A stretch of DNA of 28,874 nt from Myxococcota bacterium (GCA_040752415.1 JBFMGU010000135.1:1-28874); one strand, 5' to 3'. Numbered from the stretch's first letter, positions 2,936 to 27,043 are shown. The notes: a model not told the origin generated them from the letters alone. Translations and numbers: made by a program.

Positions 2936-3022
2936 TCCGCGCCAAGCCAGGGAACAAGCGGGATTGACAAGCCCCCAGGGCACTCTTCAGATCCGCGCCC
3001 CACGTTCGTGGAGCGGATCCCC

Positions 3023-3619
3023 ATGGCCAAGACCACGCGAAACACCGGCGCCCGTCCCGAGGCGCTGCTCGCCACCCAGCAGGACCACCTGGATGCCCTC
3101 CACGAAGGACTGGAGAACGTCCGCACCCGCTTGGAGAGTCTCCAGGATGATCTGCGCTCCCTGCTCGCCCACGCGGCGGAGCTGGCCACCGGTCAGGAAG
3201 CGCTGCGCGAGCAGCTGGGAACGCGCGCGTCCGAGCCCACGCCCGAACGCACGCCGGAATCCGCTCCCGCGCCCACCGTCGCCGCTGCGGCACGCGGCGC
3301 GCGCGAGGTGACGCTCTCCGGTCCCCGCGGTGCCAACGCGCGCGGTGTGTTCGGCAAGGAGGGACTCACGGTGCTGCGCGGCTCGGAGATCGCCGACCCC
3401 ATGGTGCCCTCCATGCCCGCGCCCCTGCGCGCCCTGCGACAGCAGCTCCTGGATGAGCGCGTGGTGGTCCGCGCCCGCAACCGTCTCACCTTCGCCCACG
3501 ACCACGTCTTCTCCAGCCCCTCCGCGGCCGCAGCGGTGGTGATGGGCCGCAACGCCAATGGCTGGCGTGAGTGGCGCGACAAGCGCGGTCGCACGCTGGA
3601 AGACGCCAAGCGTCGCTGA
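3023..3619 (+). CDS. Coiled-coil + DUF4357-like domain protein, 198 aa
   Basis: GGAG upstream of ATG 3023. N-terminal heptads (LDALHEGLENVRTRLESLQDDL). C-terminal VLRGS...DHVFSSPSAAAAVVMGRNANGWREWRDKRGRTL is the pattern I recognise for DUF4357. Confidence 0.8.
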   Translation: MAKTTRNTGARPEALLATQQDHLDALHEGLENVRTRLESLQDDLRSLLAHAAELATGQEALREQLGTRASEPTPERTPESAPAPTVAAAARGAREVTLSGPRGANARGVFGKEGLTVLRGSEIADPMVPSMPAPLRALRQQLLDERVVVRARNRLTFAHDHVFSSPSAAAAVVMGRNANGWREWRDKRGRTLEDAKRR

Positions 3620-8995: not shown

Positions 8996-9294
8996 GACGA
9001 ATCAAGGCTAAACCTGACGAAACCCATTCCCTTCTCGGGCGCTCACGGGAAGCCCCAGGTCCCGGCCGGGGTCCGCCGCTTGACGGAGCGGGGGCACACC
9101 GCCCGGGTCCCCCTCGGATCCCCGCCCTGCGTTGATGCCGGAGTCAGCCCCGCAACCCCTTGTTTCTGCGAGGTTTCCGGCCCGGGGTGTGGTAGTCCTC
9201 CGGCCGTCCGGCAACATTCCCCCGCCGGGGGACGAAACTATGGAGCCTTTGCAGGCGTAGGGCGTTGCCCCGCCGCCACACCAGGAGGATTCCC

Positions 9295-10842
9295 ATGACG
9301 GCTGTCCACAACAACGGGCTCGACGGGATGCTTTCGGCGCTGGGTCTTTCGCGCCAGCTCGCTGAGCAGGTGGGAGGCTCCCTCAAGGCGGGCCGACTGG
9401 ATGCCGCCAGTCTCCAGGCCCTGCTCACCACCATGCCCACCGGCGTCAGCACCCAGTCGGGTCTGGCCGGTGGCGCGCACGCCCTGCCGCCCAGCGGCTA
9501 CGTGGCCCGCCCCCGCGACTACCTGGCCGAGCAGCTGGCCGAGGCGGCCCTCCCCGTGGGCAACGGCTTCGGCGGCATCAACGGTGAGGACGCCTACGGC
9601 CCCACCCGCCTGGGTCACTCCCTGCAGGCCATGATGATCCGCAACCCGGCCATGGCCCAGCAGATGGAGAAGCTGCTGAAGGGCACGCTGGTGCCGGACG
9701 GTCGTGACGACGGGCGTTTCACCGTGTACCAGTCCCCGCACACGCGCACCGGTGCGTGCATGAAGCAGGCGCAGCAGGCCGGCGTGGTGGGCAAGAGCCC
9801 CTTCACGCTGCCGCTGGCCAACCTCAACGTCTCCATGACCAACCCGGCCGTGGCCAACGGGCCCACCGGCGGCATCCTCAAGGGCCTGATGGCCATGGAA
9901 GCCAACATCACGAACATGGTGGGCAGCTTCAACAAGACCGGCGGCGGCCTGCCCGCGGGCATGCAGCAGATGGCGCAGATGATGGGCATGAACCCCAACA
10001 GCGCCAACTTCGAGGACATCGTCCAGCTGCAGCTCATGTACTACGCCACCACGAAGGAGCAGGAGATTGCCGCCAAGGTGCAGTCGCTGGACAAGGGCAA
10101 CGCGGTGGGTGGCTTCTACGGCGGCCTGACCGACCCGAACGCCGGTGGCCAGACCGCGCGCCGGCTGTTCGATTATTCCGCTCCCGCGTCGGGGAACGTG
10201 CAGGCGCAGACCGCGCCGCAGGCCCGCGTCACCCCGCGTCCGCAGGCGCAGACCGCGGCCACCGCGCGCCCCCAGGCCCAGACGCAGGACAAGAACTACA
10301 ACGCGCAGGCCGCGGCCAACGCGGCGCGCTGGGACGCCATGGGCCAGGTGGTCGAGTACCAGCGGCCCATCCAGCTCGAGGATGGTCGCGTGCTCATCAA
10401 CGGGCGGCCGGTCCCGCGTGACTCCCCCGAGGCGCAGGCCGCCACCTACGAAGCCTGGGCGGCCCGCTACGGCGTCACCGACGGCTCCCAGGTGGCCATC
10501 CTCGGCCCCAACGGGAACACCAACGGCGCGGGCGGCAAGGTGCAGGGCAACGTGTATGGCATGTCCTACGGCCAGCAGATCACCGGTGGCGGCGTGAGCG
10601 CGGTGGGTGGCGCGGGCGGCGCGGGCGGGTTCGGCGCGGGCGCGGATGGTGGCTACAACGGGTTGCTCTCCGGCGTGGGCCAGGGCCTCCCGTCCAATCC
10701 CAACCAGATGAGCGACACCATGAAGCAGCAGATGCTCCAGAAGCTCATGAGCGACCTGCAGAAGATGTACGAGATGCTCTCCAACATGTTGAAGAGCATG
10801 CACGAGATGCAGATGACGCCCATCCGCAGCCTCCGCGGCTGA
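9295..10842 (+). CDS. Gly/Gln/Met-rich hypothetical protein with T3SS needle/filament-like C-terminal helix, 515 aa
   Basis: AGGAGG SD before ATG 9295; strong GC3; no signal peptide; ends QMLQKLMSDLQKMYEMLSNMLKSMHEMQMTPIRSLRG. The CDS is secure, the functional call is inference. Confidence 0.8.
   Translation: MTAVHNNGLDGMLSALGLSRQLAEQVGGSLKAGRLDAASLQALLTTMPTGVSTQSGLAGGAHALPPSGYVARPRDYLAEQLAEAALPVGNGFGGINGEDAYGPTRLGHSLQAMMIRNPAMAQQMEKLLKGTLVPDGRDDGRFTVYQSPHTRTGACMKQAQQAGVVGKSPFTLPLANLNVSMTNPAVANGPTGGILKGLMAMEANITNMVGSFNKTGGGLPAGMQQMAQMMGMNPNSANFEDIVQLQLMYYATTKEQEIAAKVQSLDKGNAVGGFYGGLTDPNAGGQTARRLFDYSAPASGNVQAQTAPQARVTPRPQAQTAATARPQAQTQDKNYNAQAAANAARWDAMGQVVEYQRPIQLEDGRVLINGRPVPRDSPEAQAATYEAWAARYGVTDGSQVAILGPNGNTNGAGGKVQGNVYGMSYGQQITGGGVSAVGGAGGAGGFGAGADGGYNGLLSGVGQGLPSNPNQMSDTMKQQMLQKLMSDLQKMYEMLSNMLKSMHEMQMTPIRSLRG
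10201..10287 (+). repeat. Short intragenic repeat (QAQT x3)
   Basis: CAGGCGCAGACCGCG occurs twice plus a CAGGCCCAGACG variant, encoding QAQTAPQARVTPRPQAQTAATARPQAQTQ. Confidence 0.6.
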
Positions 10843-11398
10843 GCTCCGCAGCACCCCTTCTCCGACGACACGCGTCCGCTTCCACGCCCCCCTTCGCAGA
10901 GCGACGCGCCCCTCCAATCCCATCCCGCATTGCATCACGCGCCCGGAACAGGCGGGTTGCCGTCCCCTGCGCTCGCGCTTCCGCCTCCCGCGGATCCGCT
11001 CCCCGGAAAATGCGAAAAATAGCGGGCAAACACGCGGCGTTCTGCCGCACCCCGGCTGAGGTGTCGTCGGAAAAACGCGCAGGAGTTGCCGCAGCGGCAT
11101 CCGCGGCGCGGAATTTTCGCCACGCCGGGGTCCGCTCGGCGGGGCGCGGCGCGGCGGCTGGAAGCGCGTCCTTCCCGTCGCCACGCGCTTAGGAATGCAC
11201 TTCGGGCACGGCCGCGTCCGCGAAGAAGTTTCGCGTTTTCTTCGCGGGGAAGGGCGTTTCCCTGACGACGGAATTGCGACGCAACGGCTTCGACCTGCGG
11301 CACTTTGTCAGTTGAATCTTGCGTTTCGCGCAAACTAAGCACGCGAAAGCCTGCTGGGCCCTGCGGGGCGCCAACACCAGCGTGGCGTGAGGTCAACC

Positions 11399-12043
11399 AT
11401 GACTTCCAAGCAGTTCCTCCTGGGACTGGCCGGCGCGGGGCTGGCGCTGCTGACGACGGGCTGTCCCTCCGCGGCGGCGGACGGTCCCGCGCGCGGCAAG
11501 ACGCTGTACGCCAACTGCGTGTCGTGTCACGGCGCCGACGGGAGCGGAAACCACACCTACGGCGCACCGGCCATTGCCGGCATGAGCACCTGGTACCTGG
11601 AAGCGCAGCTCAAGAAGTTCCGCTCCGGCGCCCGCGGCACCCACCCGCGCGACGTGGAGGGCATGCGCATGCGGCCCATGTCGCAGACGCTGGCCAGCGA
11701 CGCGGATGTCACCAACGTGGCCGCCTACGTGGCCAGCCTCCCGGCACGCAAGCCCGCCCCCACGGTGCTGGATGGCAACGCCGCCACGGGCGCGCAGCTC
11801 TTCGCCACGTGCACCGCCTGCCACGGCGCCACCGGCGCGGGCAATGAAGCGCTCAAGGCCCCGCCGCTGAGCGGCAACCACGACTGGTACCTGCTGGCCC
11901 AGCTCAGGAAGTTCAAGGAGGGCGTGCGCGGTGCCAACCCTGAAGACACCACCGGCGCGTTGATGCGCCCCATGGCGCAGACGCTCGTCGACGAGCAGGC
12001 CATGAAGAACGTGGTGGCGCACATCATGACGTTGTCCCGGTGA
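11399..12043 (+). CDS. Diheme cytochrome c4/c553-like, probably lipoprotein, 214 aa
   Basis: Two CxxCH motifs (CVSCH, CTACH) in duplicated domains with P.I/L.G...WYL.AQL.KF and axial Met (MRPM). Signal ends LLTTG-C. GAGG SD. Confidence 0.92.
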   Translation: MTSKQFLLGLAGAGLALLTTGCPSAAADGPARGKTLYANCVSCHGADGSGNHTYGAPAIAGMSTWYLEAQLKKFRSGARGTHPRDVEGMRMRPMSQTLASDADVTNVAAYVASLPARKPAPTVLDGNAATGAQLFATCTACHGATGAGNEALKAPPLSGNHDWYLLAQLRKFKEGVRGANPEDTTGALMRPMAQTLVDEQAMKNVVAHIMTLSR

Positions 12044-12075
12044 GGCACACCGCCTTCCCACCCGGAGCCCCTGCC

Positions 12076-12183
12076 ATGTCCCACGAGAGCAACGCTCCCG
12101 ACTCCCTGGCCACCGCCATCTTCCTCATGACCATGGCGGGCATCGCGGCATTCGTGGCCGCGGTGTTCATCTTCATCCTGTGA
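12076..12183 (+). CDS. 35-aa single-pass membrane protein inside the oxidase operon (not in ORF track)
   Basis: GGAG at 12064-12067, ATG 12076, MSHESNAPDSLATAIFLMTMAGIAAFVAAVFIFIL*. High GC3; stop directly precedes the SD of subunit II. Confidence 0.8.
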   Translation: MSHESNAPDSLATAIFLMTMAGIAAFVAAVFIFIL

Positions 12184-12196
12184 CGGAGGAGGGCGC

Positions 12197-12955
12197 ATGG
12201 AATCCCTAGTTGTCGAAGCCTCCAGCTACGCCAAGGACATTGATGACCTCATCATGCTCATCCTGGTCCTGGCGGGCTTCTGGTTCCTGCTGGCCGAGGC
12301 CGTCTTCTTTGGCTTCATCTTCCGCTTCCGCGCCAAGGAAGGTCAGAAGGCGCAGTACATCACCGGCGAGGAGAAGCAGCAGAAGAAGTGGATCAGCATC
12401 CCGCACGCGCTGGTGCTGGTCTGCGACATCTTCATCATCGTGGGGGCAGTGAAGGTCTGGGTGAACGTCAAGCAGACGCTCCCGGAAGCGGCCCACACCG
12501 TGCGCGTCATTGGCCAGCAGTGGGCCTGGACCTTTGTCCACCCCGGCCCCGACGGGCAGCTGGACACCCCCGACGACATCACCACCAACGACGAGCTGCA
12601 CGTCAAGGTGAACGCCGTCTACCACTTCAAGCTGGAGAGCCGGGACGTGCTGCACAGCTTCTCGGTGCCGGCGTTCCGCCTCAAGCAGGACGCGGTCCCG
12701 GGCCGCACCATCACCGGCTGGTTCGAGCCCACGCGGGTTGGCGCGTACGACGTGCAGTGCGCGGAGATCTGCGGGATTGGCCACGGCATCATGGCCGCGC
12801 GCCTGATGGTGGAGACCCCGGAACAGCATGACGCGTGGATGAAGCGCCTTGCCCCGCCGCCCCCGCCCCCGGTGGCCGCGCCCACGCCGCCGAACACGAA
12901 CACGCCGGATGCTTCCGTGCCCGGCAACACCCCGACTCCGGAGGGACAGCCATGA
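12197..12955 (+). CDS. coxB: Cytochrome c oxidase subunit II (CuA)
   Basis: Two TM helices, GQQWAWTF, DVLHSF, CAEICGIGHGIM CuA motif. GGAGGAGG SD. ATGA overlap with subunit I. Confidence 0.95.
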   Translation: MESLVVEASSYAKDIDDLIMLILVLAGFWFLLAEAVFFGFIFRFRAKEGQKAQYITGEEKQQKKWISIPHALVLVCDIFIIVGAVKVWVNVKQTLPEAAHTVRVIGQQWAWTFVHPGPDGQLDTPDDITTNDELHVKVNAVYHFKLESRDVLHSFSVPAFRLKQDAVPGRTITGWFEPTRVGAYDVQCAEICGIGHGIMAARLMVETPEQHDAWMKRLAPPPPPPVAAPTPPNTNTPDASVPGNTPTPEGQP

Positions 12956-14637
12956 GCGCGTCCGGCCACGCCGAGCACCACGCGGAGGAAGGCTTCTTCC
13001 GCAAGTACCTGTGGTCCACGGATCACAAGATCATTGCCATGCAATACCTGTTCACCGGGATGTTCATGGCGCTGATTGGCGGTTTCACCGTCTACGTGTT
13101 CCGCATGCAGCTGGCCTTCCCCGGCCAGGACGTTCCCGGCTACGGGCTCGTTTCTCCGTCGGAATACAACGCGCTCATCACCACCCACGGCTCGGTCATG
13201 ATCTTCTGGGTGGCCATGCCGGTGCTGATTGCCGCATTCGGCAACTATCTCATCCCGCTGATGATCGGTTGTGATGACATGGCGTTCCCACGTCTCAACC
13301 GCCTCAGCTACCAGGTGTTCCTCCTCAGCGCGGTGCTGCTGATGGCGTCGTTCTTCGTCGAGGGGGGAGCGTTTGGCGGCGCGTGGACGGCCTACCCGCC
13401 GCTCTCCTCCAAGCCGGAATTCAACAACACGCCCATGGGCTCGGTGATGTGGCTCACCGCGGTGGCGCTGGAGTTCGTGGCGTTCCTGCTGGGCGGCATC
13501 AACTTCGTCACCACGGCCATGAACTCCCGCGCGCCGGGCATGAAGATGTTCGACATCCCCATGGCGGTGTGGATGATCGTGATTGCATCCATCATGTTCA
13601 TGGCCAGTGTGGGGCCGCTGGTGGCAGGCGCGGCCATGCTGCTGCTGGACCAGGTGGCCGGCACCGGTTTCTACGACCCCGCGCGCGGTGGCGACCCCGT
13701 CCTGTGGCAGCACCTCTTCTGGTTCTTTGGCCACCCGGAGGTCTACGTGGTGCTGCTGCCCGCCATGGGCATCGTGGCGGAGATCATCACCGTCTTCGCG
13801 CGCAAGAAGCTGTTTGGCTACAAGACGGTGCTCTGGACCGCGGTGGCCACCGGCATCCTGAGCTTCTGCGTGTGGGCGCACCACCAGTTCGTGGCGGGCA
13901 TTGACCCGCGCATGGCCAACGTCTTCACCATCACCACGCTGCTCATCTCCATTCCCATTGCGGAGCTGTGCTTCGTCTACATTGCCACGCTGTACGGCGG
14001 CTCCATCCGCCTCACCACGCCCATGTTGTGGGCGCTGGCGTTCGTGGCGGAGTTCCTGATTGGTGGCGTGACGGGAATCTTCCTGGGCTCCAGCGGCTCG
14101 GACATCTACTTCCACGACACGTACTTCGTGGTGGCGCACTTCCACTACACGTTCTTCCCCATTGCGTTCATCGCCGTGTTCGCGGGCGTGACGTACTGGT
14201 TCCCCAAGATGTTCGGGCGGATGCTCAACGAGACGCTGGGCAAGATCCACTTCTGGGGCACGGTCATCCCGTTCAACCTGATCTTCATCCCGCTGTTCCT
14301 CACCGGCGCCGCGGGCGACCACCGCCGCATCTACAACTACAACCACTTCCCGGACCTGGCGCGGCCGGAGCTCCAGAACCTGCGCGTGCTGGCCACGGTG
14401 GCGCTGGTGACGCTGCTGCTGTTCCAGGCGGTGTTCCTCTTCAACTTCTTCCGCAGCATCTTCGCGGGGAAGGTGGCCGACGCCAATCCGTGGAGGGCCA
14501 ACACGCTGGAGTGGACGGTTCCCTCTCCGCCGCCGCACGGCAACTTCGCGGAGATGCCCACCGTCTACCGCGGCCCGTACGAATACAGCGTGCCCAACCG
14601 TGAAGACGACTACTGGCCCCAGAACGTCCCCGGCTAA
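12952..14637 (+). CDS. coxA: Cytochrome c oxidase subunit I (A1-type motif), 561 aa
   Basis: STDHK, THGSVMIF, DMAFPRLN, WTAYPPL, WFFGHPEVY, VWAHH, HDTYFVVAHFHY, RR pair. Confidence 0.96.
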   Translation: MSASGHAEHHAEEGFFRKYLWSTDHKIIAMQYLFTGMFMALIGGFTVYVFRMQLAFPGQDVPGYGLVSPSEYNALITTHGSVMIFWVAMPVLIAAFGNYLIPLMIGCDDMAFPRLNRLSYQVFLLSAVLLMASFFVEGGAFGGAWTAYPPLSSKPEFNNTPMGSVMWLTAVALEFVAFLLGGINFVTTAMNSRAPGMKMFDIPMAVWMIVIASIMFMASVGPLVAGAAMLLLDQVAGTGFYDPARGGDPVLWQHLFWFFGHPEVYVVLLPAMGIVAEIITVFARKKLFGYKTVLWTAVATGILSFCVWAHHQFVAGIDPRMANVFTITTLLISIPIAELCFVYIATLYGGSIRLTTPMLWALAFVAEFLIGGVTGIFLGSSGSDIYFHDTYFVVAHFHYTFFPIAFIAVFAGVTYWFPKMFGRMLNETLGKIHFWGTVIPFNLIFIPLFLTGAAGDHRRIYNYNHFPDLARPELQNLRVLATVALVTLLLFQAVFLFNFFRSIFAGKVADANPWRANTLEWTVPSPPPHGNFAEMPTVYRGPYEYSVPNREDDYWPQNVPG

Positions 14638-14655
14638 GCCACTTAGGAATCCACC

Positions 14656-15225
14656 ATGAAGCCCATTGCCACCACACGAAGCGCCACCGGCATTCCCACC
14701 GGCAGGCTCGCCATCTGGTGGGTCATCGCCTCCGAGATCGTGATCTTCGGCGGGCTCTTGGCCTCCTACATCATGCACCGCCTGGGTCACCCGGAGTGGG
14801 CGGACCAGGCCGCGCACACCAACACGTGGGCCGGTGCCTTCAACACGCTGGTGCTGCTGACCTCCAGCCTCTCCGCGGTGCTGGCGCACCAGGCCGCCGA
14901 GGAGAAGAACGGTCCCAAGGCCGCGCGACTCCTCCTGTTCACCTGCCTGGGCGGCCTCATCTTCCTGTGCGTCAAGGGCTTTGAGTGGACGCACGAGATC
15001 CAGGCGGGCTTCACGCTGACCGCCGGCGGCTTCTGGCACTTCTACTACACCGCCGCGGGCCTCCACGGACTGCACGTCATTGCCGGGATGGTGACCATGC
15101 TCATCATCGCCGCCGACGCGCGCAAGGGTCAGGAGCTGCAGCGCGTGGAGCTGGTGGGGCTGTACTGGCATTTCGTCGACGTGGTCTGGATCTTCCTCTT
15201 CCCGCTCCTCTACATCGCGAGGTGA
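14656..15225 (+). CDS. coxC: Cytochrome c oxidase subunit III (short form), copy 1
   Basis: IASEIVIFGGL, NTLVLLTSS, K.FEW, GLHGLHVIAG, GLYWHFVDVVWIFLFPLLY. Confidence 0.92.
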   Translation: MKPIATTRSATGIPTGRLAIWWVIASEIVIFGGLLASYIMHRLGHPEWADQAAHTNTWAGAFNTLVLLTSSLSAVLAHQAAEEKNGPKAARLLLFTCLGGLIFLCVKGFEWTHEIQAGFTLTAGGFWHFYYTAAGLHGLHVIAGMVTMLIIAADARKGQELQRVELVGLYWHFVDVVWIFLFPLLYIAR

Positions 15226-15228
15226 GCC

Positions 15229-15564
15229 GTGACCGAGCACGCGCATCCCAATTACGTGAAGGTCTGGGCCATCCTGGTGGCACTGCTGGTGGTCAGCGTG
15301 GTGGGCCCCATGCTGGGCATCAAGGTGCTCACGCTCATCACCGCCTTTGGCGTGGCGGTGGTGAAGGCCTACCTGGTGGCCCGCAACTTCATGCACCTGC
15401 ACATCGAGAAGCGCTGGGTGGTGTACCTCCTCACCACCTGCCTGGCCTTCATGCTCCTGCTGTTTGCCGGCGCCGCTCCCGACGTCATGAAGCATGAAGG
15501 CCAGCGCTGGGAGAACCATGCGGCCAAGCGTGTGACCCACCAGGCGCAACAGCCCGTGCACTGA
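15229..15564 (+). CDS. Cytochrome c oxidase subunit IV family
   Basis: YVKVWAILVAL, AVVKAYLVARNFMHL motif, three TM helices; GTG start after GAGG. Confidence 0.88.
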   Translation: MTEHAHPNYVKVWAILVALLVVSVVGPMLGIKVLTLITAFGVAVVKAYLVARNFMHLHIEKRWVVYLLTTCLAFMLLLFAGAAPDVMKHEGQRWENHAAKRVTHQAQQPVH

Positions 15565-15573
15565 GGAGAGCCC

Positions 15574-16164
15574 ATGACCACCCTGAACGCGTTCTCCACC
15601 GGCGCAGCGCCCCGACGTCAGCAGGTGATCGCCAACGGCGTGTTGGGGATGCTGATCTTCGTGATTGCGGAGGCCATGTTCTTCGCCGGCCTCATCAGCG
15701 CCTTCATGATCGTGCGCGCGTCCGCGCCGGGTGGGATCTGGCCGCCGTCGGGACAGCCGCGCCTCCCCGCCGACGAGACCGCGTTCAACACGGCCATGCT
15801 CCTGCTCAGCGGCGTGATGTTGTGGGTGGCGCACGGGCGGTTCCGAAAGAGCGCAGGGACGGCGCGCACGCCGCTGTTGTGGGCCATCCTGCTGGGGGCG
15901 TCGTTCGTGGTGCTGCAGGGCGTGGAGTGGGTGGCCCTCATCCGCGAAGGGTTGACGCTGACCTCCAGCGCGCACGGCGGTTTCTTCTATCTCATCGTCG
16001 GGATGCACGCGGCGCACGCGGTGGTGGCGTTGGGCGTGCTCTCCCACGTGTTCGCGCAGCTGGTGCGGGGACGCCTGCATCCCGCCACGCTCTGGACCGC
16101 GGAGGTGTTCTGGTACTTCGTGGTGGGGCTGTGGCCGTTCCTGTACCTCCGGGTCTACTTCTGA
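15574..16164 (+). CDS. Cytochrome c oxidase subunit III family, copy 2
   Basis: LGMLIFVIAEAMFFAGLISA, NTAMLLLSG, Q.VEW, GMHAAH, FWYFVVGLW. GAGGAG SD. Confidence 0.9.
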   Translation: MTTLNAFSTGAAPRRQQVIANGVLGMLIFVIAEAMFFAGLISAFMIVRASAPGGIWPPSGQPRLPADETAFNTAMLLLSGVMLWVAHGRFRKSAGTARTPLLWAILLGASFVVLQGVEWVALIREGLTLTSSAHGGFFYLIVGMHAAHAVVALGVLSHVFAQLVRGRLHPATLWTAEVFWYFVVGLWPFLYLRVYF

Positions 16165-16172
16165 GGCGCCCC

Positions 16173-16439
16173 ATGAAACGGCTGGCGACGTGGATGGTGC
16201 TGATCGCGGTGCTCCTGCTCCCGGAGCTGGTGTTGGCGTGTCCCGCGTGCGCGCTCCGGCAGGAGAAGAACCGTGTGGCCTACCTGGTCACCACCGCGCT
16301 GCTCAGCGTCATCCCGCTGCTCTCGGTGGGCGGGTTGGTGTGGTGGATGCGCAAGCGCCTGGCGGAGCAGGAACAGGCGCAGCGCGCGGGACCAGCAACG
16401 CCGGCGCAGGAATTGCGTCGGCTGCCGTCGGAGACGTGA
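16173..16439 (+). CDS. Small exported CxxC membrane protein, 88 aa
   Basis: GAGG then ATG 16173: signal-like MKRLATWMVLIAVLLLPELVLA, then CPAC, one TM helix and a basic cytoplasmic tail. Confidence 0.8.
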   Translation: MKRLATWMVLIAVLLLPELVLACPACALRQEKNRVAYLVTTALLSVIPLLSVGGLVWWMRKRLAEQEQAQRAGPATPAQELRRLPSET

Positions 16440-16547
16440 GACCCGCGGGTTTCCACTCCACGCTGAGGCTCTGATAAGGAACGCGCCCCCTTTCTGGTGC
16501 ACGGCGTGTGCGCCGCGTTGTCCCCCCATTCCCCAGGAATAGAACCC

Positions 16548-17036
16548 ATGCGTCAGACTGTGTTTGTGTTGAGCCTCTCCGCTGCCGTCTCAATCTTCGC
16601 CGTGGCCTGCGACAAGGGTGGAAGCGCTCCCGCTCCCGCGGCCAACCCCGTGGAGGCCGCCGCCGCTCCCGCCCCCGCGCCGGCTGCTGCTCCCGCCGCG
16701 CAGCCCGCTGCCGCACCCGCAGCCGGTGGTGCGCCGGTGGCTGCCGCTGGTGGCGCCGCCGCGGAGGCCAAGACCATCCTGGATACGCGTTGCGCGCTGT
16801 GCCACGGCGCCGACGGAAGCGGCAATGGCGCCGCCGCCGCCGCCCTCAACCCCAAGCCCCGCAACTGGAAGGATGCCGAGTGGCAGAAGTCCACCACCGA
16901 CGAGCAGATTGCCAAGGTCATCGTTGAGGGCGGCCAGGCCATCGGGAAGAGCCCGCTCATGGCGGCCAACCCCGACCTCAAGGGCAAGGATGAAGTGGTC
17001 AAGGAGCTGGTGAAGCTGGTTCGCGCGTTCAAGTGA
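16548..17036 (+). CDS. Monoheme cytochrome c lipoprotein with Ala/Pro tether, 162 aa
   Basis: AGGA SD, ATG 16548, lipobox FAVA-C, long AP linker, CALCHG, PKPRNW, GKSPLM axial Met. Confidence 0.92.
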   Translation: MRQTVFVLSLSAAVSIFAVACDKGGSAPAPAANPVEAAAAPAPAPAAAPAAQPAAAPAAGGAPVAAAGGAAAEAKTILDTRCALCHGADGSGNGAAAAALNPKPRNWKDAEWQKSTTDEQIAKVIVEGGQAIGKSPLMAANPDLKGKDEVVKELVKLVRAFK

Positions 17037-17488: not shown

Positions 17489-19507
17489 TCACTTCGGCTC
17501 GATCTCGCTGGAATCCATGGCCGTGGCCACGGTCCGGATGCTGACGAACGGGCTCGACTCGTGGATGCCCTGCGCGATGCGGTGCGTGATGTTGGGCGGG
17601 GAGAAATACTGCGGCTTGTTGGGGTCGCCCAGCGGCGTGCTGCGGGCGCGCTCCAGGTCCGGCTCAATGGCCTTGTTCAGCCACTGCGTGGCCTGCTCCC
17701 GCGTCAGCCCGTTGTTCTGCAGGACGTCCGCCGCCGCCGCCTCCACGCCCTTCATCATCATCTTGGCCAGCTCCATCTTCTGCGCGTCGAGGGTGCCGCC
17801 CGGGAGGAAGTCCTCCTTCTTGCCGCCCACGCCCACGTAGAGCTCCGCCGTCTTCTGCTGCGCGAACTTCTGCAGCTCCGCCGGGTTGGTGAACCGCTGG
17901 GCCTTGGCCTCCGCGATCATCACCTTGTTGAGCACCGGCATGGCCAGGCCGATGTACTGCTCATTGGTGACGCCAGTGCGCTGCTTGACGGTGTCCAGGA
18001 AGCCCAGCACCAGCGCGTTCACCGTCACCCCGCCCACGTCCTTGAAGCTGGCGTAGATGTTCAGGAAGTCGTTGAGGATGTCCGGCGTGGTCTCCGGCGG
18101 CCAGGCCAGGCCCTTGCCAATCCGCGTCTCCGTGGCCGGGTTGGTCAACCCCTCCTTCTTCCACAGCGGCTCGAAGCTGGTCTCCTTCATCGGCTCGCCA
18201 GCCAGCGACTCGTACTTGGCCTTCACTTCCGCGAAGAACTTCTTCCCTTCCGCCTCGCCCCAGATCTCCTTGAACGCCGCCTCGTTGTGCGGAACGTTCA
18301 GCATGATGTTGGTGACGATGGTCTTGTGCTCCGCGCAGTACGTGTGCCACTTCGGGTCGCTGTGGAGCTCCGGGTCGTCGCGGACCCACTTCTGGTAGAA
18401 CTCCAGCGTCGTCTTCAGGTCAATGGTCTTGTACAGGTCGTTCTTGTAGTCGGGCGGGAACTCCACGCCCTTGTTCAGCAGCTTGTCGGCGATGAGCGCG
18501 TTCTGGTTGAGCACCGCCTGCGGAACGCCCTGCAAGCTCACGATCTGCACGTTGGCCGGGTAGCCTTTCACGTGCCACTGGTTCGAGTGGTAGGTCTCCG
18601 GCGAGTTGGTGGTGCGGCCAGCGCCGACGTACGCGCCCAGGTGCGTGTTGCCACCCTCCGTCTTCAGCATGTTGGTGGCCAGGTCCTTCAGCGAGCCGTT
18701 GTGCATCTCCGGGTGGATGTACGCGATCAGCGCGTAGATCGGGTCGTCCGGGCCCAGGCCCATCTCCTTGCGGAGCAGATCATCCATGACCTGGTGGCCG
18801 GGCACGGTGGTGCCGTCGGGAGCGGTGATGGTGCCGTGGTCGTTCACCGGCACCGGGCGCATGCCGATCTTTCCGCCGCCGAGGTCGTAGTGGAAGTCGC
18901 GCACGTTGTAGCTGCCGCCGGTGGGGAGCTGCACGTCGGTGGTGCCGAACTTGTCGGCCTTGATGCCCTTGTAGGCGTCGGCGAGCGCGTCGGCCTTGAC
19001 CTTCCACGGGCCGTCGAAGGTGGGCGTGCCCTTGTAGTGGGCCGGGTTCACCACCGCGCCGGTGTTGCCCAGGCGGTGATCCATCACGGTGCCGCCGCTG
19101 CCCACGGTGCCGCCGCTGACGGGCACGTTGCTCCCGCCGCTCGAGGGAGGCAGGGGCGTGGTGCCGCCGCTCGCCGGGGTGGTGGCGCGCAGCCCGGCCA
19201 GGAAGTCAGCCAGGCCCGCGGTCTTGGCCGCCTTGGTGAGCTTCACGTCGGCCGCAAGCTCGCCGAGGTGGCTCTTGAGCGCCGCGTCCGCGTTGGGGTG
19301 GCCAGCCAGCTTCTTGAGCCACTCACCTTCCTGCACATTGAGCGACTTCGTGCGGCCGCCAACGAGGGATTGCCAGTTGTTGTCGAGGAGCGTGCGGAGC
19401 TCCCCGGCGCTGGCACCGGCCGGAATCTTGGGCAGCGTGGGCTGCTGGCTGGTGGTGCTCGACGGCGTGGTGACGGTACCTGCAGGTCGGTTTGTGACGG
19501 GCGGCAT
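17489..19507 (-). CDS. Hypothetical protein, possible permuted papain-like (NlpC/P60) hydrolase with low-complexity N-terminus, 672 aa
   Basis: GGGAG SD, very strong GC3, S/T/P-rich N-terminus without signal peptide; THLGAYVG and TYCAEH motifs in His-then-Cys order. Confidence 0.8.
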   Translation of the reverse strand: MPPVTNRPAGTVTTPSSTTSQQPTLPKIPAGASAGELRTLLDNNWQSLVGGRTKSLNVQEGEWLKKLAGHPNADAALKSHLGELAADVKLTKAAKTAGLADFLAGLRATTPASGGTTPLPPSSGGSNVPVSGGTVGSGGTVMDHRLGNTGAVVNPAHYKGTPTFDGPWKVKADALADAYKGIKADKFGTTDVQLPTGGSYNVRDFHYDLGGGKIGMRPVPVNDHGTITAPDGTTVPGHQVMDDLLRKEMGLGPDDPIYALIAYIHPEMHNGSLKDLATNMLKTEGGNTHLGAYVGAGRTTNSPETYHSNQWHVKGYPANVQIVSLQGVPQAVLNQNALIADKLLNKGVEFPPDYKNDLYKTIDLKTTLEFYQKWVRDDPELHSDPKWHTYCAEHKTIVTNIMLNVPHNEAAFKEIWGEAEGKKFFAEVKAKYESLAGEPMKETSFEPLWKKEGLTNPATETRIGKGLAWPPETTPDILNDFLNIYASFKDVGGVTVNALVLGFLDTVKQRTGVTNEQYIGLAMPVLNKVMIAEAKAQRFTNPAELQKFAQQKTAELYVGVGGKKEDFLPGGTLDAQKMELAKMMMKGVEAAAADVLQNNGLTREQATQWLNKAIEPDLERARSTPLGDPNKPQYFSPPNITHRIAQGIHESSPFVSIRTVATAMDSSEIEPK

Positions 19508-20209: not shown

Positions 20210-23200
20210 TCATCGGAACGCCCCGAGTGGCACGCCCCAGTAGGTGCCTTCCGCGGTGGCCGCGAAGATGACCGGCCCCCCCGCGCCCTGGGTCAACGTC
20301 AAACCGCTGATGGCCCCATCCGACGCCAGGACCACGCTGGCGCCAACCTGCAGACCGGTCTCGAGGTCGAACCGCCGAATCGCTCCCCGGTATCCGACGT
20401 AGATCATGCCTTCGTGGATGAGCGGCGGGGACAGGGGGAACGTGGTGAGCGCGCGGTCCGGGAAGCCAACAAGCACGCCGAAGGCGCTCTCTGGCGACGT
20501 GTCGCACTTGGACTCATCCAGGGTACGCCGCCCCAACCGCCCAGAGCGGGTCGTGTACACCACGCCGCCCGCCCCGTCGGGCGCAAGCCCCTGAACCGAA
20601 CCACTGACGCCGAAGGAGCAGTTGGGGTGGTACCCCGAAGCGGTCTCAACAGCGAAGACCCGCGCGGTAATGGCACCGCAGAACACCGCCGCTCCCGACT
20701 TGATGCAGGGCGTGTCAAACTTGGTATTGATGACCCAGCCGTCGGTTCCCCACGGCATCGGTGGCGAAGGTTCCTGCGCTCCACGACTGCCCGCGAGGTC
20801 GAGCACCAGGATGCCCCTGCTGCCGCTGGGGAACCACGCGCGGCCGGTCTCGTGATCAATCAGCGCTTCGGCGAAGGACTGGCTCGCCAGGGGCTTGTGC
20901 CACACCTCCTGAAGATTCACGTCGAGCGCCACGATGCCCGTGGTTGTCGCGTGGAAGAAGGTGTCCTCCGGGTATTGGGCCGTCACCGACGCTGGCGCCG
21001 CGGACGAGCGCAACATCGTCATGCCGCTGACCGCGCGGGCGTCCATCTCCACCGCCAGGGGACAACCACTACCCGTGCATCCCTCCGCATTGTAGGTGGT
21101 GTGATCTGCCCGGACGTTGATGCGGTACGCGTGGGCGGGTGCGGTGGCAGGAACCTGCTGGTCACTCGCGGCGAAGACGTGCTCATACGGGGGCAGCGCG
21201 CTTGTCTGGGGAAGCGCCACGGGCCGGAGCACGGGATGGGCCAGTCTCGTCGCCCGCCGGTGCTCGTCGCCATTCGTCGAGAAGAAATAGAGTCCCTTAT
21301 CGTTGGAGGGGTAGGCCACGTAGCCTGCGGCAGGTCCGCCCAGCGGCGTGCCTGCTCCAGTGATCAGCGACGTCACCTGCACCGCCACCACGAAGGTCCC
21401 TGTCTCGTCGACGTGCACGCCGTCCCCGATCCCCGGCACCGTCAGGTCGTCACCCGGGTTTCCGGTGGAGTAGATGCCGTCCTGATCCTGATTGTAGATC
21501 CGGTAGGTCGTCTCCGCCGATTTCGGCGTCTCCTGGTCGGAGCACGCGGAGGAGTCCGACGTTGGCCCCGCCCTGAGACACATCACCGTGGATGGTCCGG
21601 TGCCGAAAGTCTCGCCGACGACGTAGCTCACTTTGTCCGCAGGCTGGTCGGTACCCTTCACCACGATGACTCGTGCCGGCCGCTCCGCGATGTTGTTCCA
21701 GATGAACCGCGTTCCAGGGAGCCCCACCGAGCGAATGGCCACGGGATGCAGGACGTCCTTGACCACCTTGACCACATAGGGAATGTCGTTCCGCGTCCGG
21801 GTGACGTCGTCCGCAGTAGTCCATGAAGCGGAGAGATCGGTGAAGGTGAGAACGTCGGAAGCCGAGGGGAATCGGTAGGCGAGGTTGAGCCGGAAGGTGC
21901 ACCTCGCGTTGTTCTCGAGAGGACCGCCGCTGAACACCTTGGCGTAGTAGTCCGAAACCGTGTTGCTCATGACGACGCCGCCGTCGCATTCCGGTTGAGG
22001 CGCGGGGTTGAAGCTCCAGAGGAAATCCCCCCGCACGAACGTCGTCCCGCTCGCATCCACGGCATGCTGCGGAGCCCCGAAGACCACTTCGTGGATGGGT
22101 CGGCCGGACTCATTGACCAGGACGATCTCGACCTCCCCGTCATGCGATGCTCCTCCCGGGGAGTTGGTGGTGATGCTGGAACCTGTGGTGTCACGCACGT
22201 TGAACGCGCTGCTGGTCCCGCTCAAGGCCGGATAGGCGCCGTGGGCTCCCGCGGTGAGGGTGAGCCGGGTCTGGGTCTCCTCTCCGTCGAGGGTCACCGC
22301 CAGCGACGCCACACCGGCGTTGAACGAAAGCACCGCGGGGTACTGGCCCGACGGACTTGAGCTGGCCACCGTCAAGGGAACCGTGACCGGTCCGTAGGCC
22401 GCGTCAACCCGATCGTTCTCATCCACCGCGTACACCGTGACCACCAGGGGCTGTTTGAGGCTGACCTCGTCCGGGTTCCCGAGCACCGGCGGAGGCCACT
22501 GACCAGGCAGCGCGATGGCCAACTTCACGGCCCCATTGCCACGGACCATGTAGGGCAGCGAGAGCGCTTCGATGTCCTCAGTTCCACTCCCTGACTGGGA
22601 CACCAGCTTCGTTGCACTTAGAACGTGTGCGCCCGCTGCGCCATCCCTCATGAAGACCGTGCGAGTGTGCTGCGACATGTCAAACGGCAGCAGCGCCGTC
22701 GGTTGGCCCGAGCCGGTGCACGCTGGGTCACCGTGGAAGGTGGCCGAGGGTGATGCCGCGACCTCGAACGCCACGGGACCGGTGGGCGGAACCGGGACCC
22801 CGGTGTCGTTCCGAAGGGATAGCGTCACTGGGACACACCCGCCCACGGAGAAGGTCCCGAGGCTTCCGTCCAGCACAATCTTCGTCGGAGCGACCTTGTA
22901 CGCTGCCGCGGAGACAACGAAGCTCCGCGCGCGGGAATAGCGACGGCCCGCTTCCACCGCATCCTCCACCAGGCTCCGTGGCGACGCAGCGACGCTCAGG
23001 AAGACGGTGCCGTTGGGGCTGGCGGCACCACCGAGGCTGGCCAGCGTGCTGCTCCAGGTGTCCGCGGTATCCACCTCCGCGCTGCCAACGGATGTGGCGA
23101 AGGCAAGTACAACATGCTCCTGCAAACCGGAGGTCGTGACCTCCGCAGGGCCCGCGATGTCGCTCTCGCCGGTGGCGGTATCCGCGCTCATGAGGCGGTC

Positions 23201-26200
23201 GGGAACAACCGGGCCACTCGCCTTCACGCCCACCGCCTCGATCGCTGCGATGGCCTTGCCAAACTTCATCCCGGTGCGCACCCCGTCGATCTTGACGTGG
23301 ACCTTCCCGGCGCGGTCGGCGTTGAACGCCTTGGACCAGACCACGTGGGTCAGCGCGACGCCGCTGGGCAACGGGCGCGAGCCTGCCCCATCGCGTATCC
23401 ACTGGCCGTCCTGGATGTCATCCCAGATGGTCACGCTGGGGTGCTCCAACGGAATCACGTTCGCGTTGCTGTAAGGATTCACCGCAACGGCGACTATCAG
23501 CACCCGGTTCTTCCTTGCCGCGTAGTCGAAGGCATACTCCGTGGCGACGTCGTCGTAGGCGACGATGAATTTCGGTCGCATGTCAACCGGGGGCAACGGA
23601 CATGCCAAGCGGCCGCCAGGGTCAAGGCCCCACGGTTGCTCTTCCGCGGGGCAGTCCTTGGCCGTGCCGTCGCAGTGCTCGCGCTCGTCGCACCATGCCA
23701 TCTGGGAGTTTCCGCAGGTCCACAAATGCGGACGGACACGGTCCTCACAGCTCTTGCTGACCCCATCGCACCGATCCTGCAGGTCGCATTCCTGGCCGTG
23801 GTAGTCCCCGCAGGGAGTGCCAGCCGGCCTGGGGATGTCCTCGGGACACGTGGGGCTTGAGCCCGTACACGCCTCCGGTGCGTCGCAATCCCCCTCGGTG
23901 TCCCGACAGGGAGTGCCTGCCAGCACATACTGCGGCCGGCAGGTGCCGTGGTCGTCGCACGTGTCCGCAACGTCGCAGTCGCCGTCTGCGCGCCGGCACT
24001 CGGTACCCTCCGCCTTGTAGGTCCGCACGCAGGTACCCAGGCCATCGCACTCGTCGGGCGCGTCGCATGGCTGGAGGAAGCCCGCGGGCGCGCACTCCGT
24101 GCCACGTCGTTTGAAACCGTCCTGGGGACACGTCGTGCTCGTGCCATTGCAGTACTCCGCAACATCGCAGACACCCTCCGCGCCCCGACATGGCTCCGGG
24201 TGGTCCGGGCGGACCGGAGTGCAGGTCCCGTCCTGCGTCCCGCCCGCCGCACGGCTGCATGCCTGGCAGTCGGTGGTGGAGCCACCGCCGCACGCGCTCT
24301 CGCAACACACTCCATCGGCGCAGTATCCCGTGCTGCACTCCGCGTTCGACGAGCAAGCGTTGCCCCACGCGTGGTATTCCCATGTCTCGGCGAGTGCGTC
24401 GGGGCCGCGGCCGCCAAAGAGCACAACCCGACGGCGTGCGGAGTCGAATGCCATCGCCGAGTAGTCACGTGGCCCTGGCGAGGAATCCGGGTCTTCCGTC
24501 GCCTCCAGCGCTTCCTTCCACGCGTACCCCCCGGCATCCCAAGCAAGCTCCCACGTCGACGGGCGCTGGCCCGACTCGGAGATGCCGCCGAACATGACCA
24601 CCACGCCGCGGGCGTCGTCGCCAACCATGGAATGTCCGAACCGCGCGTCCGGCTGAGAGTCCCCGGAAACGTGAATCTGGACCCAGTTGTCACCTTGGAG
24701 CTCGTAGGCGTCTTGAAGGGGGTGCGTGCCGTCCTCCCCGCCGAACAACACCAGCGCGTTCCGCTCGGGGTGGTACGCCATCGCATGCGCGGAACGGATC
24801 GGCACCGTGCCGCTCATCGACCTCCATTGCATGCCGTCCCACGCCCAGCTGTCGCCCTGGGGACCGGAGGCGTTTGAGCCACCCACCAGGACCACGCGTC
24901 CACGGGTGGGGTCGTAGGCCATCGCGTGGCCATAGCGCGGCCCCGGGCCATCCGCGGTGCTGGGCGGAGTCACGTCTGACCATTGCGGATCCGCCAACGG
25001 TGCCGGCCGGCCCCACTCCCACACGTCCTCGAAAACAGTATCCCCGGCGCTGGCACCGCCAAACAGGACCAGGCGCTCACGCCGAGCGTCGTAGGCCATC
25101 GCGTGCTGAAACCGTGCGGGCGGCGCAATGACGTGGGTCCACTCCTGCCATCTCGTGCCATCCCATGACCACGTATCTCCGACCGGCGCCCCGTCGACAG
25201 AACCGCCAAACACGAACACCTTTCGTTCGACATCGTGATACGCGCCCGCGCCCATCGCGCGTGCGGGAGGAGGATTGGGAGTGACGTCGGACCACTGAAG
25301 CGACGACGACAGACGCCAGACATCGTCTCGCGCGGAGCCGCCCCTGCGGCCACCCATGGCAGCCAGGCCGCGCTTGTCCGAAACCAGAACCACGCCAGAC
25401 CTTGCCGGGGGACGGTCGAAGTCCACGTCGAGGGAAACCCAGCTGCCGCCTTGCAACGACCACGCGTCGTTCAACGCCCCCGCGACTCCTTCGCCGCCGA
25501 ACAGCGTGATGACGTGGCGCACATGGTCGTACGCCATACCGGCACCGCTTCGCGCGGGCGGGCGGGGGCCCTCGAGCAGCGTCCACTGCGCTCCGTCCCA
25601 GTGCCACGTCTCGTCGGAAAGACCTGTGGCGGTGCGCCCGCCAAAGACGTAGATGCCCGCCCCACCAACCTCCGACGCCATCACATGACCGTGGCGCGCG
25701 GCGGGTGCGGGGGAGCCGGGCAGTCCCTGCGGCTCGCGCCGTTCCCACGACGTGCCATCCCACTCCCAGATGTCCGCGAGGTCGCCGGCATCGCCCGTTC
25801 CGCCGAAGAGGACAACGACACCGCGCGCGTGATCGAACGCCATCGCGTGGTGGGCCCGGGGCTCGGGAGGGTCGCCCGTGGCGGAAGCTACGGCCCAGGC
25901 GCTGCCGGTCCACAACCAGGTCGTGCCGTCGCTGATCGGCCCGCCCTCGCCAATGCCACCGAACATCACCGCTTCAGTGCGGGCTGCGTCCCATGCGATT
26001 CCGTGACCTGCTCGCGCCGAGGGATACTCGTCCGACGCGGACGGCGGCCAGAAGCGTTGCCATGCGTTCCCATTCCACGTCCACGTGTCATCGAGCGGAC
26101 CGGTGGTTGTCATCCCGCCGAACATGAGCACGTTGCCATTCGCGAGTCGTGCTGCCGCGTGGGAGAAGCGTGCCTCGGGAAGCGCGGCGTCCTTAAGCTC

Positions 26201-26947: not shown

Positions 26948-27043
26948 CCAGCCTCCGTGTTGCACCAAGTCCGACCTCGGGCACCTACGCCCACCTTCAC
27001 GACGGCCTTCGTTGACGGTGCTAGAGTTAGCTGCCGATACCTG

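Follow-up and report, generated by a model that had tools for sequence, protein, structure and literature searches.

How does a haem-copper oxidase supply its active site with protons when the lysine of the K-pathway is gone? Textbooks treat this Lys as essential to aa3-type oxidases, and whether it acts as a proton carrier or as an electrostatic switch is debated. The question is raised by a 28,874-nt stretch of high GC content (about 0.61-0.71) from a Myxococcota bacterium (GCA_040752415.1 JBFMGU010000135.1:1-28874), referred to here as the window, which carries an operon for an A1-type oxidase whose subunit I lacks this Lys. Judged from its residues and from structural models, the enzyme would be a working cytochrome c:O2 oxidoreductase of the A-family, A1-type, with a rerouted proton path, a reading to which a probability of roughly 55% is given. 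Its subfamily is found mainly in Myxococcota and has the CoxMNOP ('two COX3') oxidases as relatives.

Active site and channel residues of subunit I

Subunit I was compared by phmmer with all chains of the PDB, with Rhodobacter sphaeroides 1M56_A and Paracoccus denitrificans 1AR1_A as references. It groups with the aa3 oxidases (E 3e-124), and its alignment to the two references is gap-free from helix VI through helix IX; the R. sphaeroides number of a residue is its own number plus 23. The AlphaFold2 model of the subunit has a mean predicted local distance difference test score (pLDDT) of 92.3 and places helix VIII at residues 319-347. All six metal-ligand His residues are kept: H79, H261, H310, H311, H396 and H398, equivalent to H102, H284, H333, H334, H419 and H421. 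A 61-row alignment shows no variation at H79, H261, H311 and H398, and conservation of 90% or more at H310 and H396. E263 of the GHPEVY motif, which marks the A1 type, and the cross-link Tyr, Y265, occur in 81 of 81 aligned operons (the window and 80 related loci), while GHPEVY and WAHHQ are found in 120 of the 120 listed database homologues. The active-site signature read from these residues is that of an O2 reductase. An original prediction, made from the sequence of the window alone, had stated that the six ligands, the Tyr and the Glu are kept, and the alignment to the two reference enzymes agrees.

The enzyme is about 40% identical to the canonical aa3 oxidases (1M56, 1AR1 and bovine 1OCC), with which it shares the ligands, GHPEVY, the D-channel entry, the HD pair of the Mg site, the Arg pair and the CuA site. 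Unlike them, it has lost K362, T359, S299, S365, S200 and S201, it has Glu at S197, Gln at M335, GDHRR and Phe at H472, and its subunit III is of the short five-helix type and is duplicated in the window. In helix VIII, T359 of R. sphaeroides is replaced by I336, G360 by A337, I361 by E338 and K362 by L339. Elsewhere S299 is A276, H300 is E277, M335 is Q312 (WAHHM reading WAHHQ), and M479/P480 are D456/H457 (GMPRR reading GDHRR). These assignments, which lie in the ungapped region for helices VI-IX, bear out the earlier reading of T359 as Ile and K362 as Leu with a Glu one residue before it; the same alignment gives the helix VI Ser as Ala and the WAHHQ and GDHRR motifs as they had been read. 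Of the K-channel set given for P. denitrificans in Table 2 of PMC3084760 (K354, T351, S291 and Y280) only the Tyr remains, the others being Leu/Met, Ile/Val and Ala.

The D-channel, which had been described as kept, is so only in its lower part, where D109 (D132), N98, N116, N184 and S119 are present. In its upper part S200 is replaced by A177, S201 by F178 and S197 by E174. These three changes are invariant in 80 of 80 aligned relatives, and E174, A177 and F178 are absent or rare among 64 Lys-bearing representatives. Table 2 of PMC3084760 lists eight D-channel residues for P. denitrificans (D124, N199, N113, N131, Y35, S134, S193 and E278), seven of which are present here; S193, the R. sphaeroides S201, is Phe178. 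The Ser pair at the S200 and S201 positions is likewise missing from CoxN of Ralstonia. Subunit I does not reach the equivalog cut-off of NCBIfam TIGR02891, CtaD_CoxA (597.4 vs 670.75 bits), and its database relatives carry generic names only, 'cbb3-type cytochrome c oxidase subunit I' or 'cytochrome c oxidase subunit 1'.

Conservation of the clade and loss of the lysine in the A-family

Scanning species-representative genomes yielded 587 confirmed stretches; the best 80 were kept and aligned with the window. The best 80 loci are nearly all from metagenome-assembled genomes labelled Myxococcota, Archangium, Polyangiales, Sandaracinaceae or Nannocystaceae, and a few have other labels. Some of them stop at contig edges; homologues were found of the dihaem cytochrome c in 72 (upstream of coxII wherever found), coxII in 76, coxI in 80, cox3a in 78, cox4 in 76 and cox3b in 71, and the genes found keep the order of the window. 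Subunit I sequences from different Myxococcota families share 70-83% identity, and a database search listed 120 clusters with 77-100% identity to that of the window. Of 300 genomes sampled from the phylum, at least 39 encode an orthologue with 70% identity or more, or 38 if the unpublished genome G195 is set aside; in g48 and g81, the largest genera of the sample, the only matches are about 42% identical. The carriers of the operon include the complete genomes G227, G247 and G204.

The substitutions are common to the whole clade. Position 338 is Glu in 79 of the 81 operons, Gln in one and Ile in one, and the Glu of P-[IVL]-[AG]-E-[ML] is present in 119 of the 120 database homologues, which excludes a one-off or a sequencing artefact. 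Position 339, equivalent to K362, is Met in 77 operons and Leu in four, while position 336, equivalent to T359, is Ile in 41, Val in 38 and Leu in two. A276 is found in 79, position 277 is Glu in 75 and Asp in six, and Q312 is present in all 81. Median pairwise ratios of non-synonymous to synonymous substitution rates (dN/dS) run from 0.22 for coxI to 0.51 for cox3b and are under 0.52 in all six genes tested; since the GC content at third codon positions (GC3) is about 90%, dS is probably underestimated and the true ratios are likely lower. With intact genes, conserved order in 80 loci and dN/dS below 1, the clade is, by the record of its sequences, a real, conserved and selected subfamily, and neither decay nor sequencing error, which is what the original prediction had proposed in preferring a rewired subfamily to decay.

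The accompanying claim that the Lys is near-invariant does not hold for the natural diversity of the A-family. In a library clustered at 50% identity the clade amounts to about one full-length representative, short fragments aside, and its next neighbours are 45-47% identical. Among the 117 nearest near-full-length A-family representatives the K362 column lacks Lys in 53, 12 of which are the clade described here; the residues replacing it in the 53 rows are Met (13), Gln (13), Leu (12), Ile (8) and others. A FastTree phylogeny calls for at least six to nine changes of the Lys state, nine over the whole tree and six of them on well-supported branches. Oxidases of types A1 and A2 without the Lys have moreover been catalogued. 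The preprint of Degli Esposti et al. (10.1101/2020.03.01.968255) describes A2-type enzymes of acidophilic iron oxidisers and of Thioclava in which K354 is replaced by Ile and similar residues and E78 of subunit II is also replaced. According to PMC8239418, the K-channel was lost several times in archaeal family A oxidases, and its Table S1 and the table of its Fig. S7 give Lys-less A1 subclades in Oligoflexia/Bacteriovorax, Elusimicrobia, Calescamantes and Methylacidiphilaceae. Such enzymes are classed there as 'KC-channel', 'hybrid' or 'modified', the idea of a KC-channel (Data Sheet 2) being that protonable residues stand where the channel positions of cbb3 oxidases fall.

The Lys-less relatives named in these sources are the rus-operon oxidases of Acidithiobacillus/Acidiferrobacter and those of Thioclava, Elusimicrobia, Calescamantes, Methylacidiphilum and Bacteriovorax. 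As described there, they resemble the enzyme of the window in belonging to the A-family, some of them to A1, and in having the cross-linked Tyr; a non-ionisable residue takes the place of K354, S291 is frequently missing and subunit II E78 is in many cases another residue. They also have Glu at position 292 and Ser or Thr at KC-equivalent positions of helix VII. The KC positions (R. sphaeroides 300, 312, 316, 319 and 327) are Glu, Gly/Ala, Val, Thr and Ser in the clade, with Leu/Met in place of the Lys. The signatures catalogued in PMC8239418 contain no helix VIII Glu, helix IX Glu or His/Asp of the second transmembrane helix (TM2) of subunit II, columns that lie outside its scheme. Its main text and five supplementary files have no Lys-less entry for Myxococcota under Myxococc, Archangium, Sandaracinus or Deltaproteobacteria; the supplementary figures of the preprint might add taxa. 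Literature searches returned no paper combining K-channel and cytochrome c oxidase with Myxococc, only the Degli Esposti preprint on oxidases lacking the K-channel, and nothing relevant by title or abstract on haem-copper enzymes of Myxococcota. Loss of the Lys as such is thus already known, while the version of this clade is, as far as these searches reach, neither described nor studied. In kind the enzyme belongs with the Lys-less A-family oxidases described before, and its clade is a lineage separate from those catalogued. By residues and models it appears to differ from all the Lys-less cases checked in its interfacial Glu-His-Asp group, its helix IX Glu, its rebuilt upper D-channel and its CoxMNOP-like subunits.

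A quick IQ-TREE phylogeny of 49 rows contains a 26-row supergroup that includes CoxN (SH-aLRT, the Shimodaira-Hasegawa-like approximate likelihood ratio test, 99). Inside it, a separate 10-row branch (support 100) is made up of the clade itself, eight rows with support 100, and two relatives, G050 (58% identity) and P0122 (65%). This branch lies outside the named CoxN clade, and the relations of branches within the supergroup form a polytomy. G050 and P0122 have no Lys (His or Ile at 362) and carry E174 and Q312, and both are without E338 and E367; the subunit II of G050, which was read, has D77 and no H70. It follows from these states that the Lys was lost first and that E338, E367 and H70 were gained afterwards.

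A further 24 operons were compared, 23 from sampled Myxococcota genomes, chosen from the match list and not at random, and coxMN of Ralstonia. Five of them form the G179 type (L088, L089, L096, L099 and L102), in which helix VIII reads PSVII or PSVVI, without Lys, and Glu stands at both TM2 positions 70 and 77 in five of five. A third Lys-less group of CuA oxidases in Myxococcota comprises 16 loci (within L093-L110) with 40-47% identity. In ten of the 16 it reads S-[IVF]-P-A-E-[VIL]-L-F-L-N-W, with a Glu at the neighbouring position 360, one before that of E338, and an Asp ends TM2 of subunit II in 16 of 16. The members of this group that were displayed have YGHHM for WAHHM, and GQHRR or GQPRW for GMPRR. 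Only two of the operons compared bear the Lys, Ralstonia coxMN and L111; both have the LExxW motif, and the part of TM2 compared holds no further acidic residue. In the loop on the positive side (P-side) of the membrane, the His of the clade is also seen in G050 (GHHRR) and in the P-A-E group (GQHRR), and the G179 type reads GLSRR. Over all the representatives, Ser or Thr is found at R. sphaeroides position 327 in 42 of 53 Lys-less against 10 of 64 Lys-bearing rows, at 323 in 22 of 53 against 0 of 64, and at 356 in 36 of 53 against 0 of 64.

Polar residues of the clade and candidate proton routes

The residues that set the clade apart emerge from a contrast of 87 clade rows with the 64 Lys-bearing rows. 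E338 in helix VIII is present in 85 of 87 and in 0 of 64, and S333, at the A356 position one turn above the lost Thr, in 87 of 87 and in 0 of 64. Helix VII has T292 (position 315; 69 of 87), which is outside the four commonest residues of the Lys-bearing rows, T296 (A319; 83 of 87), where those rows have Ala 48, Ser 15 and Thr 1, T300 (I323; 85 of 87), where they have Ile 63, and S304 (G327; 82 of 87), where they have Gly 53 and Ser 10. Each of E338, E367 of helix IX, T296, T300 and S333 is found in 95% or more of the 87 clade rows, and in no more than one of the 64 others. Since T292, T296, T300 and S304 are spaced i, i+4, i+8 and i+12, they form a ladder along one face of the helix, and two of the positions concerned, 319 and 327, are KC-channel positions of PMC8239418.

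In subunit II the CuA ligands (H...C-x-E-x-C-x3-H-x2-M) are complete (HSFSVP...CAEICGIGHGIM). The entry site, three residues before the conserved Trp and equivalent to E101 of LEIAW in 1M56_B, is Q62. The loss of the entry Glu, which had been claimed, is therefore seen in the window but is not a property of the clade, where position 62 is Glu in 35, Leu in 19 and Gln in 16 of 77 rows. A charge swap between the subunits, Lys for Glu with E101 replaced by Lys, was considered and rejected, because a recount from the conserved Trp puts E101 at Q62; K63 and K64 are ordinary basic residues at the membrane boundary. The mid-membrane Asp that had been pointed out is confirmed as D77, in the middle of TM2 and present in 76 of 77 rows, and H70 of the same helix is present in 75 of 77, with one gap row each. 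As H70 and D77 are seven residues apart, they lie on the same helix face.

According to PMC6115622, the K-channel is enclosed by three helices of subunit I (VIII, IX and X) together with helix II of subunit II. A prediction of the complex of subunits I and II had an ipSAE score of 0.89, and the best of three controls scored 0.00; of solved complexes 116 in 157, and of mismatched pairs 2 in 215, come up to this mark. Three runs share at least 99% of contacts and the partner pLDDT is at least 87, but since aa3 complexes have already been solved the pass may be a matter of memory and shows likeness, not proof. The predicted interface lists residues 333-334, 337-338 and 340-342 of subunit I, and not 336 and 339, together with 62-63, 65-66, 69-70, 73-74, 77 and 80-81 of subunit II, which make up a stripe on one face. 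In this model E338 would thus face subunit II, the lost Thr and Lys positions would point elsewhere, and H70 and D77 would face subunit I. The depth of E338 is estimated to correspond to TM2 residues 72-76, between H70 and D77, from the AlphaFold2 limits of helix VIII and an antiparallel run of TM2 (about 65-88). One locus (L053) has E338Q together with H70D in subunit II, a coupled change seen in a single case; another (L063) has E338I with H70 and D77 unchanged, and E367 is replaced by Ala, Leu, Ser or Thr in four loci.

These features suggest the following scheme. The enzyme would have CuA, two haems and CuB with the cross-linked Tyr, and would be fed by its own membrane-anchored cytochromes c. 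The Lys-based K-pathway would have been lost in the ancestor of the subfamily, and a different polar network fixed in the same region of the protein in the clade of the window. This network would consist of Glu338, on the face of helix VIII toward subunit II and opposite His70/Asp77 of TM2; of Glu367 on helix IX; and of Glu/Asp277 at the bottom of helix VI, the Thr292/Thr296/Thr300/Ser304 ladder of helix VII and Ser333. Substrate protons of the K-pathway would reach Tyr265 by a rerouted path lined with carboxylates and His, partly interfacial and partly like the KC-channel of cbb3 oxidases. One route may start on the negative side (N-side) of the membrane near subunit II residues 62-64 and pass H70, E338 and D77 at the interface of the two subunits; another, instead of it or beside it, may run within subunit I over E277, T296, T300, S304 and S333. 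The pumped and the remaining protons would take the D-channel, whose entry is conserved and whose top is rebuilt with Phe178 and Ala177, Glu174 serving as an added relay below Glu263. Conduction by any of these residues, pumping and the weight of the two routes are what we infer from the residues, their conservation, the listing of the predicted interface and the O2-reductase signature.

Several observations weigh against such a rerouting. E367 is missing from the predicted interface list, and the pairs E338-H70 and E338-D77 are not among the 25 lowest-error pairs listed. Neither E338 nor E367 is indispensable, E338 being Gln or Ile in two of 81 operons and E367 absent in four. With Phe at the S201 position, passage through the D-channel might be hindered. 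A tree-controlled test of Ser/Thr gain against Lys loss, with six independent pairs, was not significant (sign-test median p 0.25-1). The three Lys-less lineages may also share one loss, in which case the carboxylates of subunit II would be inherited and not convergent. A more specific proposal, that a Glu-His-Asp relay over the interface of subunits I and II (Glu338, His70 and Asp77, with Glu367 nearby) replaces the Lys K-pathway as a path of different chemistry, is accordingly made only tentatively and is more doubtful than rerouting in general.

The main alternative is that the K-pathway is gone with no substitute, all protons entering through the D-channel and Glu338, His70 and Asp77 forming a buried structural cluster that joins the two subunits. 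The conserved D109, N98, N116, N184 and S119 at the entry, E263, and the new invariant Glu174 just below it fit such an arrangement, as do the orientation of E338 in the model, toward subunit II and not the channel lumen, the few members that tolerate the loss of E338 or E367 individually, and the classing of several Lys-less oxidases as merely 'modified' in PMC8239418. It seems rather unlikely, since model A-type enzymes with a mutated Lys are reduced far more slowly from the oxidised state (PMC6115622), so that some replacement route is to be expected; a purely structural role would be costly for three buried ionisable residues, and the change of S201 to Phe shrinks the capacity of the D-channel.

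A change of function has less to recommend it. Two or three mid-membrane carboxylates and a His could ligate a cation, so that Na+ or metal might be translocated or bound at the Glu/His/Asp cluster; the P-side GMPRR is GD/QHRR and H472 is Phe, and A-family oxidases show a low nitric oxide (NO) reductase activity (PMC11214002), so that reduction of NO or of another oxidant can be imagined. The original prediction had drawn a parallel with the helix VIII Glu of the cytochrome c-dependent NO reductases (cNOR), which does not hold. The two motifs of NO reductases (NOR), H-x-Arom-x-E and H-H-x-Arom-Arom-x17-E (PMC3084760), both fail, the first being H261-P-E-V-Y here and the second having Ile332 at H311+21 and its Glu at +27 (338). 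The cNOR Glu is at the top of the K-region (PMC3431322), and its counterpart by motif arithmetic is residue 332, six residues above E338. Unlike cNOR and the quinol-dependent qNOR, the enzyme has a CuA subunit and the cross-link Tyr, and this Tyr, kept together with the CuB His triad, is required for O2 chemistry (PMC11214002). An oxidase of the bo3 type that had been claimed to pump Na+ proved to pump protons (PMC6423279). The 11-Mb genome of the window has six COX1-family genes including the subunit I described here, the five others being L001 and L003-L006; by their aligned motifs L001 appears to be A2-type with the Lys, L003 cbb3-like, L004 B-like and L005 a separate qNOR-like protein of 882 aa with an HLWVE motif, while the sixth gene is a weak match. 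A cation site or altered chemistry, for which there is no positive support, is therefore possible but quite improbable. Decay to a non-functional paralogue, or an assembly or sequencing artefact, might be argued from the redundancy that at least five other haem-copper family genes provide and from the score of subunit I under the CtaD equivalog cut-off. It is effectively refuted by conservation, with the same substitutions in 79-81 of 81 independent assemblies and in 119 of 120 database clusters, all frames open, and dN/dS under 1 in the six genes tested. Rerouting of the proton path in a working oxidase accordingly remains the preferred explanation.

Operon, known relatives and significance

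The eight genes of the operon are tightly packed and every frame is open. Their order is dihaem cytochrome c, CuA subunit II, subunit I, a subunit III-like protein, subunit IV, a second subunit III-like protein, a small CxxC membrane protein and a monohaem cytochrome c (Table 1); the ATG of subunit I overlaps the stop of coxII. The dihaem cytochrome had been given a start at 11399, the first ATG, and its start is set here at 11387. It is probably the electron donor of the oxidase. Both c-type cytochromes start with lipoprotein-like signal peptides. The monohaem cytochrome is no constant member of the operon, since it was detected by best blastp hit in just three of 80 loci. The NCBIfam matches of the first subunit III-like protein are all under cut-off. 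The 88-aa CPAC protein, which lies directly 3' of cox3b, gave no match in Pfam and NCBIfam scans and has a weak homologue in 23 of 80 related loci, after cox3b where listed; it may be an assembly or copper-handling factor. The window contains no genes for alternative complex III (ACIII) or a bc1 complex.

Table 1. Features of the window, with coordinates counted from its first nucleotide; R. sphaeroides positions in brackets
Feature	Coordinates	Strand	Basis or remarks
DUF4357/RAMA-domain protein, upstream	2936..3619	+	
Long open reading frame (ORF) flanking the operon	9265..10842	+	Coding-like GC3, no Pfam match
Whole operon, eight genes	11387..17036	+	
Dihaem c-type cytochrome	11387..12043	+	Pfam Cytochrom_C, two stretches, E 8.9e-32; lipoprotein-like signal (LTTGC)
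Subunit II (CuA)	12197..12955	+	Pfam COX2; NCBIfam TIGR02866 148.7 bits, cut-off 147.7
Subunit II Q62 (E101 position)	12380..12382	+	
Subunit II H70	12404..12406	+	TM2
Subunit II D77	12425..12427	+	TM2
Subunit I, A1-type (GHPEVY), 561 aa	12952..14637	+	Pfam COX1 E 1.2e-133; K-pathway Lys, Thr and Ser absent
Helix IV, upper D-channel	13471..13485	+	E174 (S197), A177 (S200), F178 (S201)
Helix VI bottom and helix VII	13777..13887	+	A276 (S299), E277 (H300), T292-T296-T300-S304 ladder, Q312 (M335)
Helix VIII motif ISIPIAELCFVYIAT	13945..13989	+	I336 (T359); E338 (I361) 13963..13965; L339 (K362) 13966..13968
Helix IX Glu367 (L390 position)	14050..14052	+	83 of 87 clade rows, 0 of 64 Lys-bearing rows
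P-side loop, GMPRR position	14320..14322		G-[DQ]-H-R-R in the clade
Subunit III-like protein a, 189 aa, short CyoC/CtaE-like form	14656..15225	+	Pfam COX3 E 1.3e-18
Subunit IV (caa3_sub_IV type)	15229..15564	+	Pfam COX4_pro; TIGR02229 40.5 bits, cut-off 37.25
Subunit III-like protein b, 196 aa	15574..16164	+	Pfam COX3 E 1.1e-20
Small membrane protein, 88 aa, CPAC after first hydrophobic stretch	16173..16439	+	No Pfam or NCBIfam match
Monohaem cytochrome c, lipoprotein-like signal (FAVAC), long Ala/Pro-rich linker	16548..17036	+	Pfam Cytochrom_C E 6.5e-06
Long ORF flanking the operon	17489..19507	-	Coding-like GC3, no Pfam match
2277-aa protein	20210..27043	-	Many Kelch repeats and a disintegrin-like domain

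The flanks of the operon are unrelated to it and encode a short-chain dehydrogenase/reductase (SDR), a hybrid His kinase, a spermidine-synthase-like protein, proteins without a family and the 2277-aa Kelch protein. Domains of the DUF4357/RAMA kind, one of which is found upstream, frequently go with restriction-modification systems.

The best named match to subunit I is CoxN, encoded in the coxMNOP cluster of the Ralstonia solanacearum megaplasmid, with 45% identity over 99% of the query. CoxMNOP, of 'A1 subtype a-III (2 COX3)', shares its parts with the enzyme of the window: a CuA subunit II, an A1-type subunit I, two subunit III-like proteins and a small subunit IV. The order of the genes differs, being II-I-III-III-IV in the coxMNOP cluster and cytochrome c-II-I-III-IV-III in the window. 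CoxN retains the Lys (PTALKVY), S299 and WAHHM, all three of which are changed in the window, and CoxM retains LExxW and has no acidic residue in the part of TM2 compared, where the window has Q62 and D77. CoxM, with 384 aa, has a long extension past the CuA domain, and the CoxM of another species is described with two c haems (PMC5492768); in the window the dihaem cytochrome has a gene of its own upstream, and no similarity could be detected. Table S1 of PMC8239418 gives the CoxMNOP subtype a canonical K-channel ('yes'), a description that fails for the window. In the literature found on coxMNOP there is nothing on channel residues.

Natural A-family oxidases without the Lys have been catalogued and are, as far as could be found, essentially uncharacterised biochemically. 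The generic names given by annotation pipelines mean that this subfamily is easily missed in metabolic reconstructions. The clade is common in soil and sediment Myxococcota and offers a clean test case, since it is A1-type, very well conserved and otherwise orthodox in its active site, with a small and specific set of candidate replacement residues. If the interfacial relay is real, nature would have shown subunit II to be a workable supply route to the active site of an A-type oxidase, and an anionic instead of a cationic relay might alter the dependence of turnover on pH or membrane potential.

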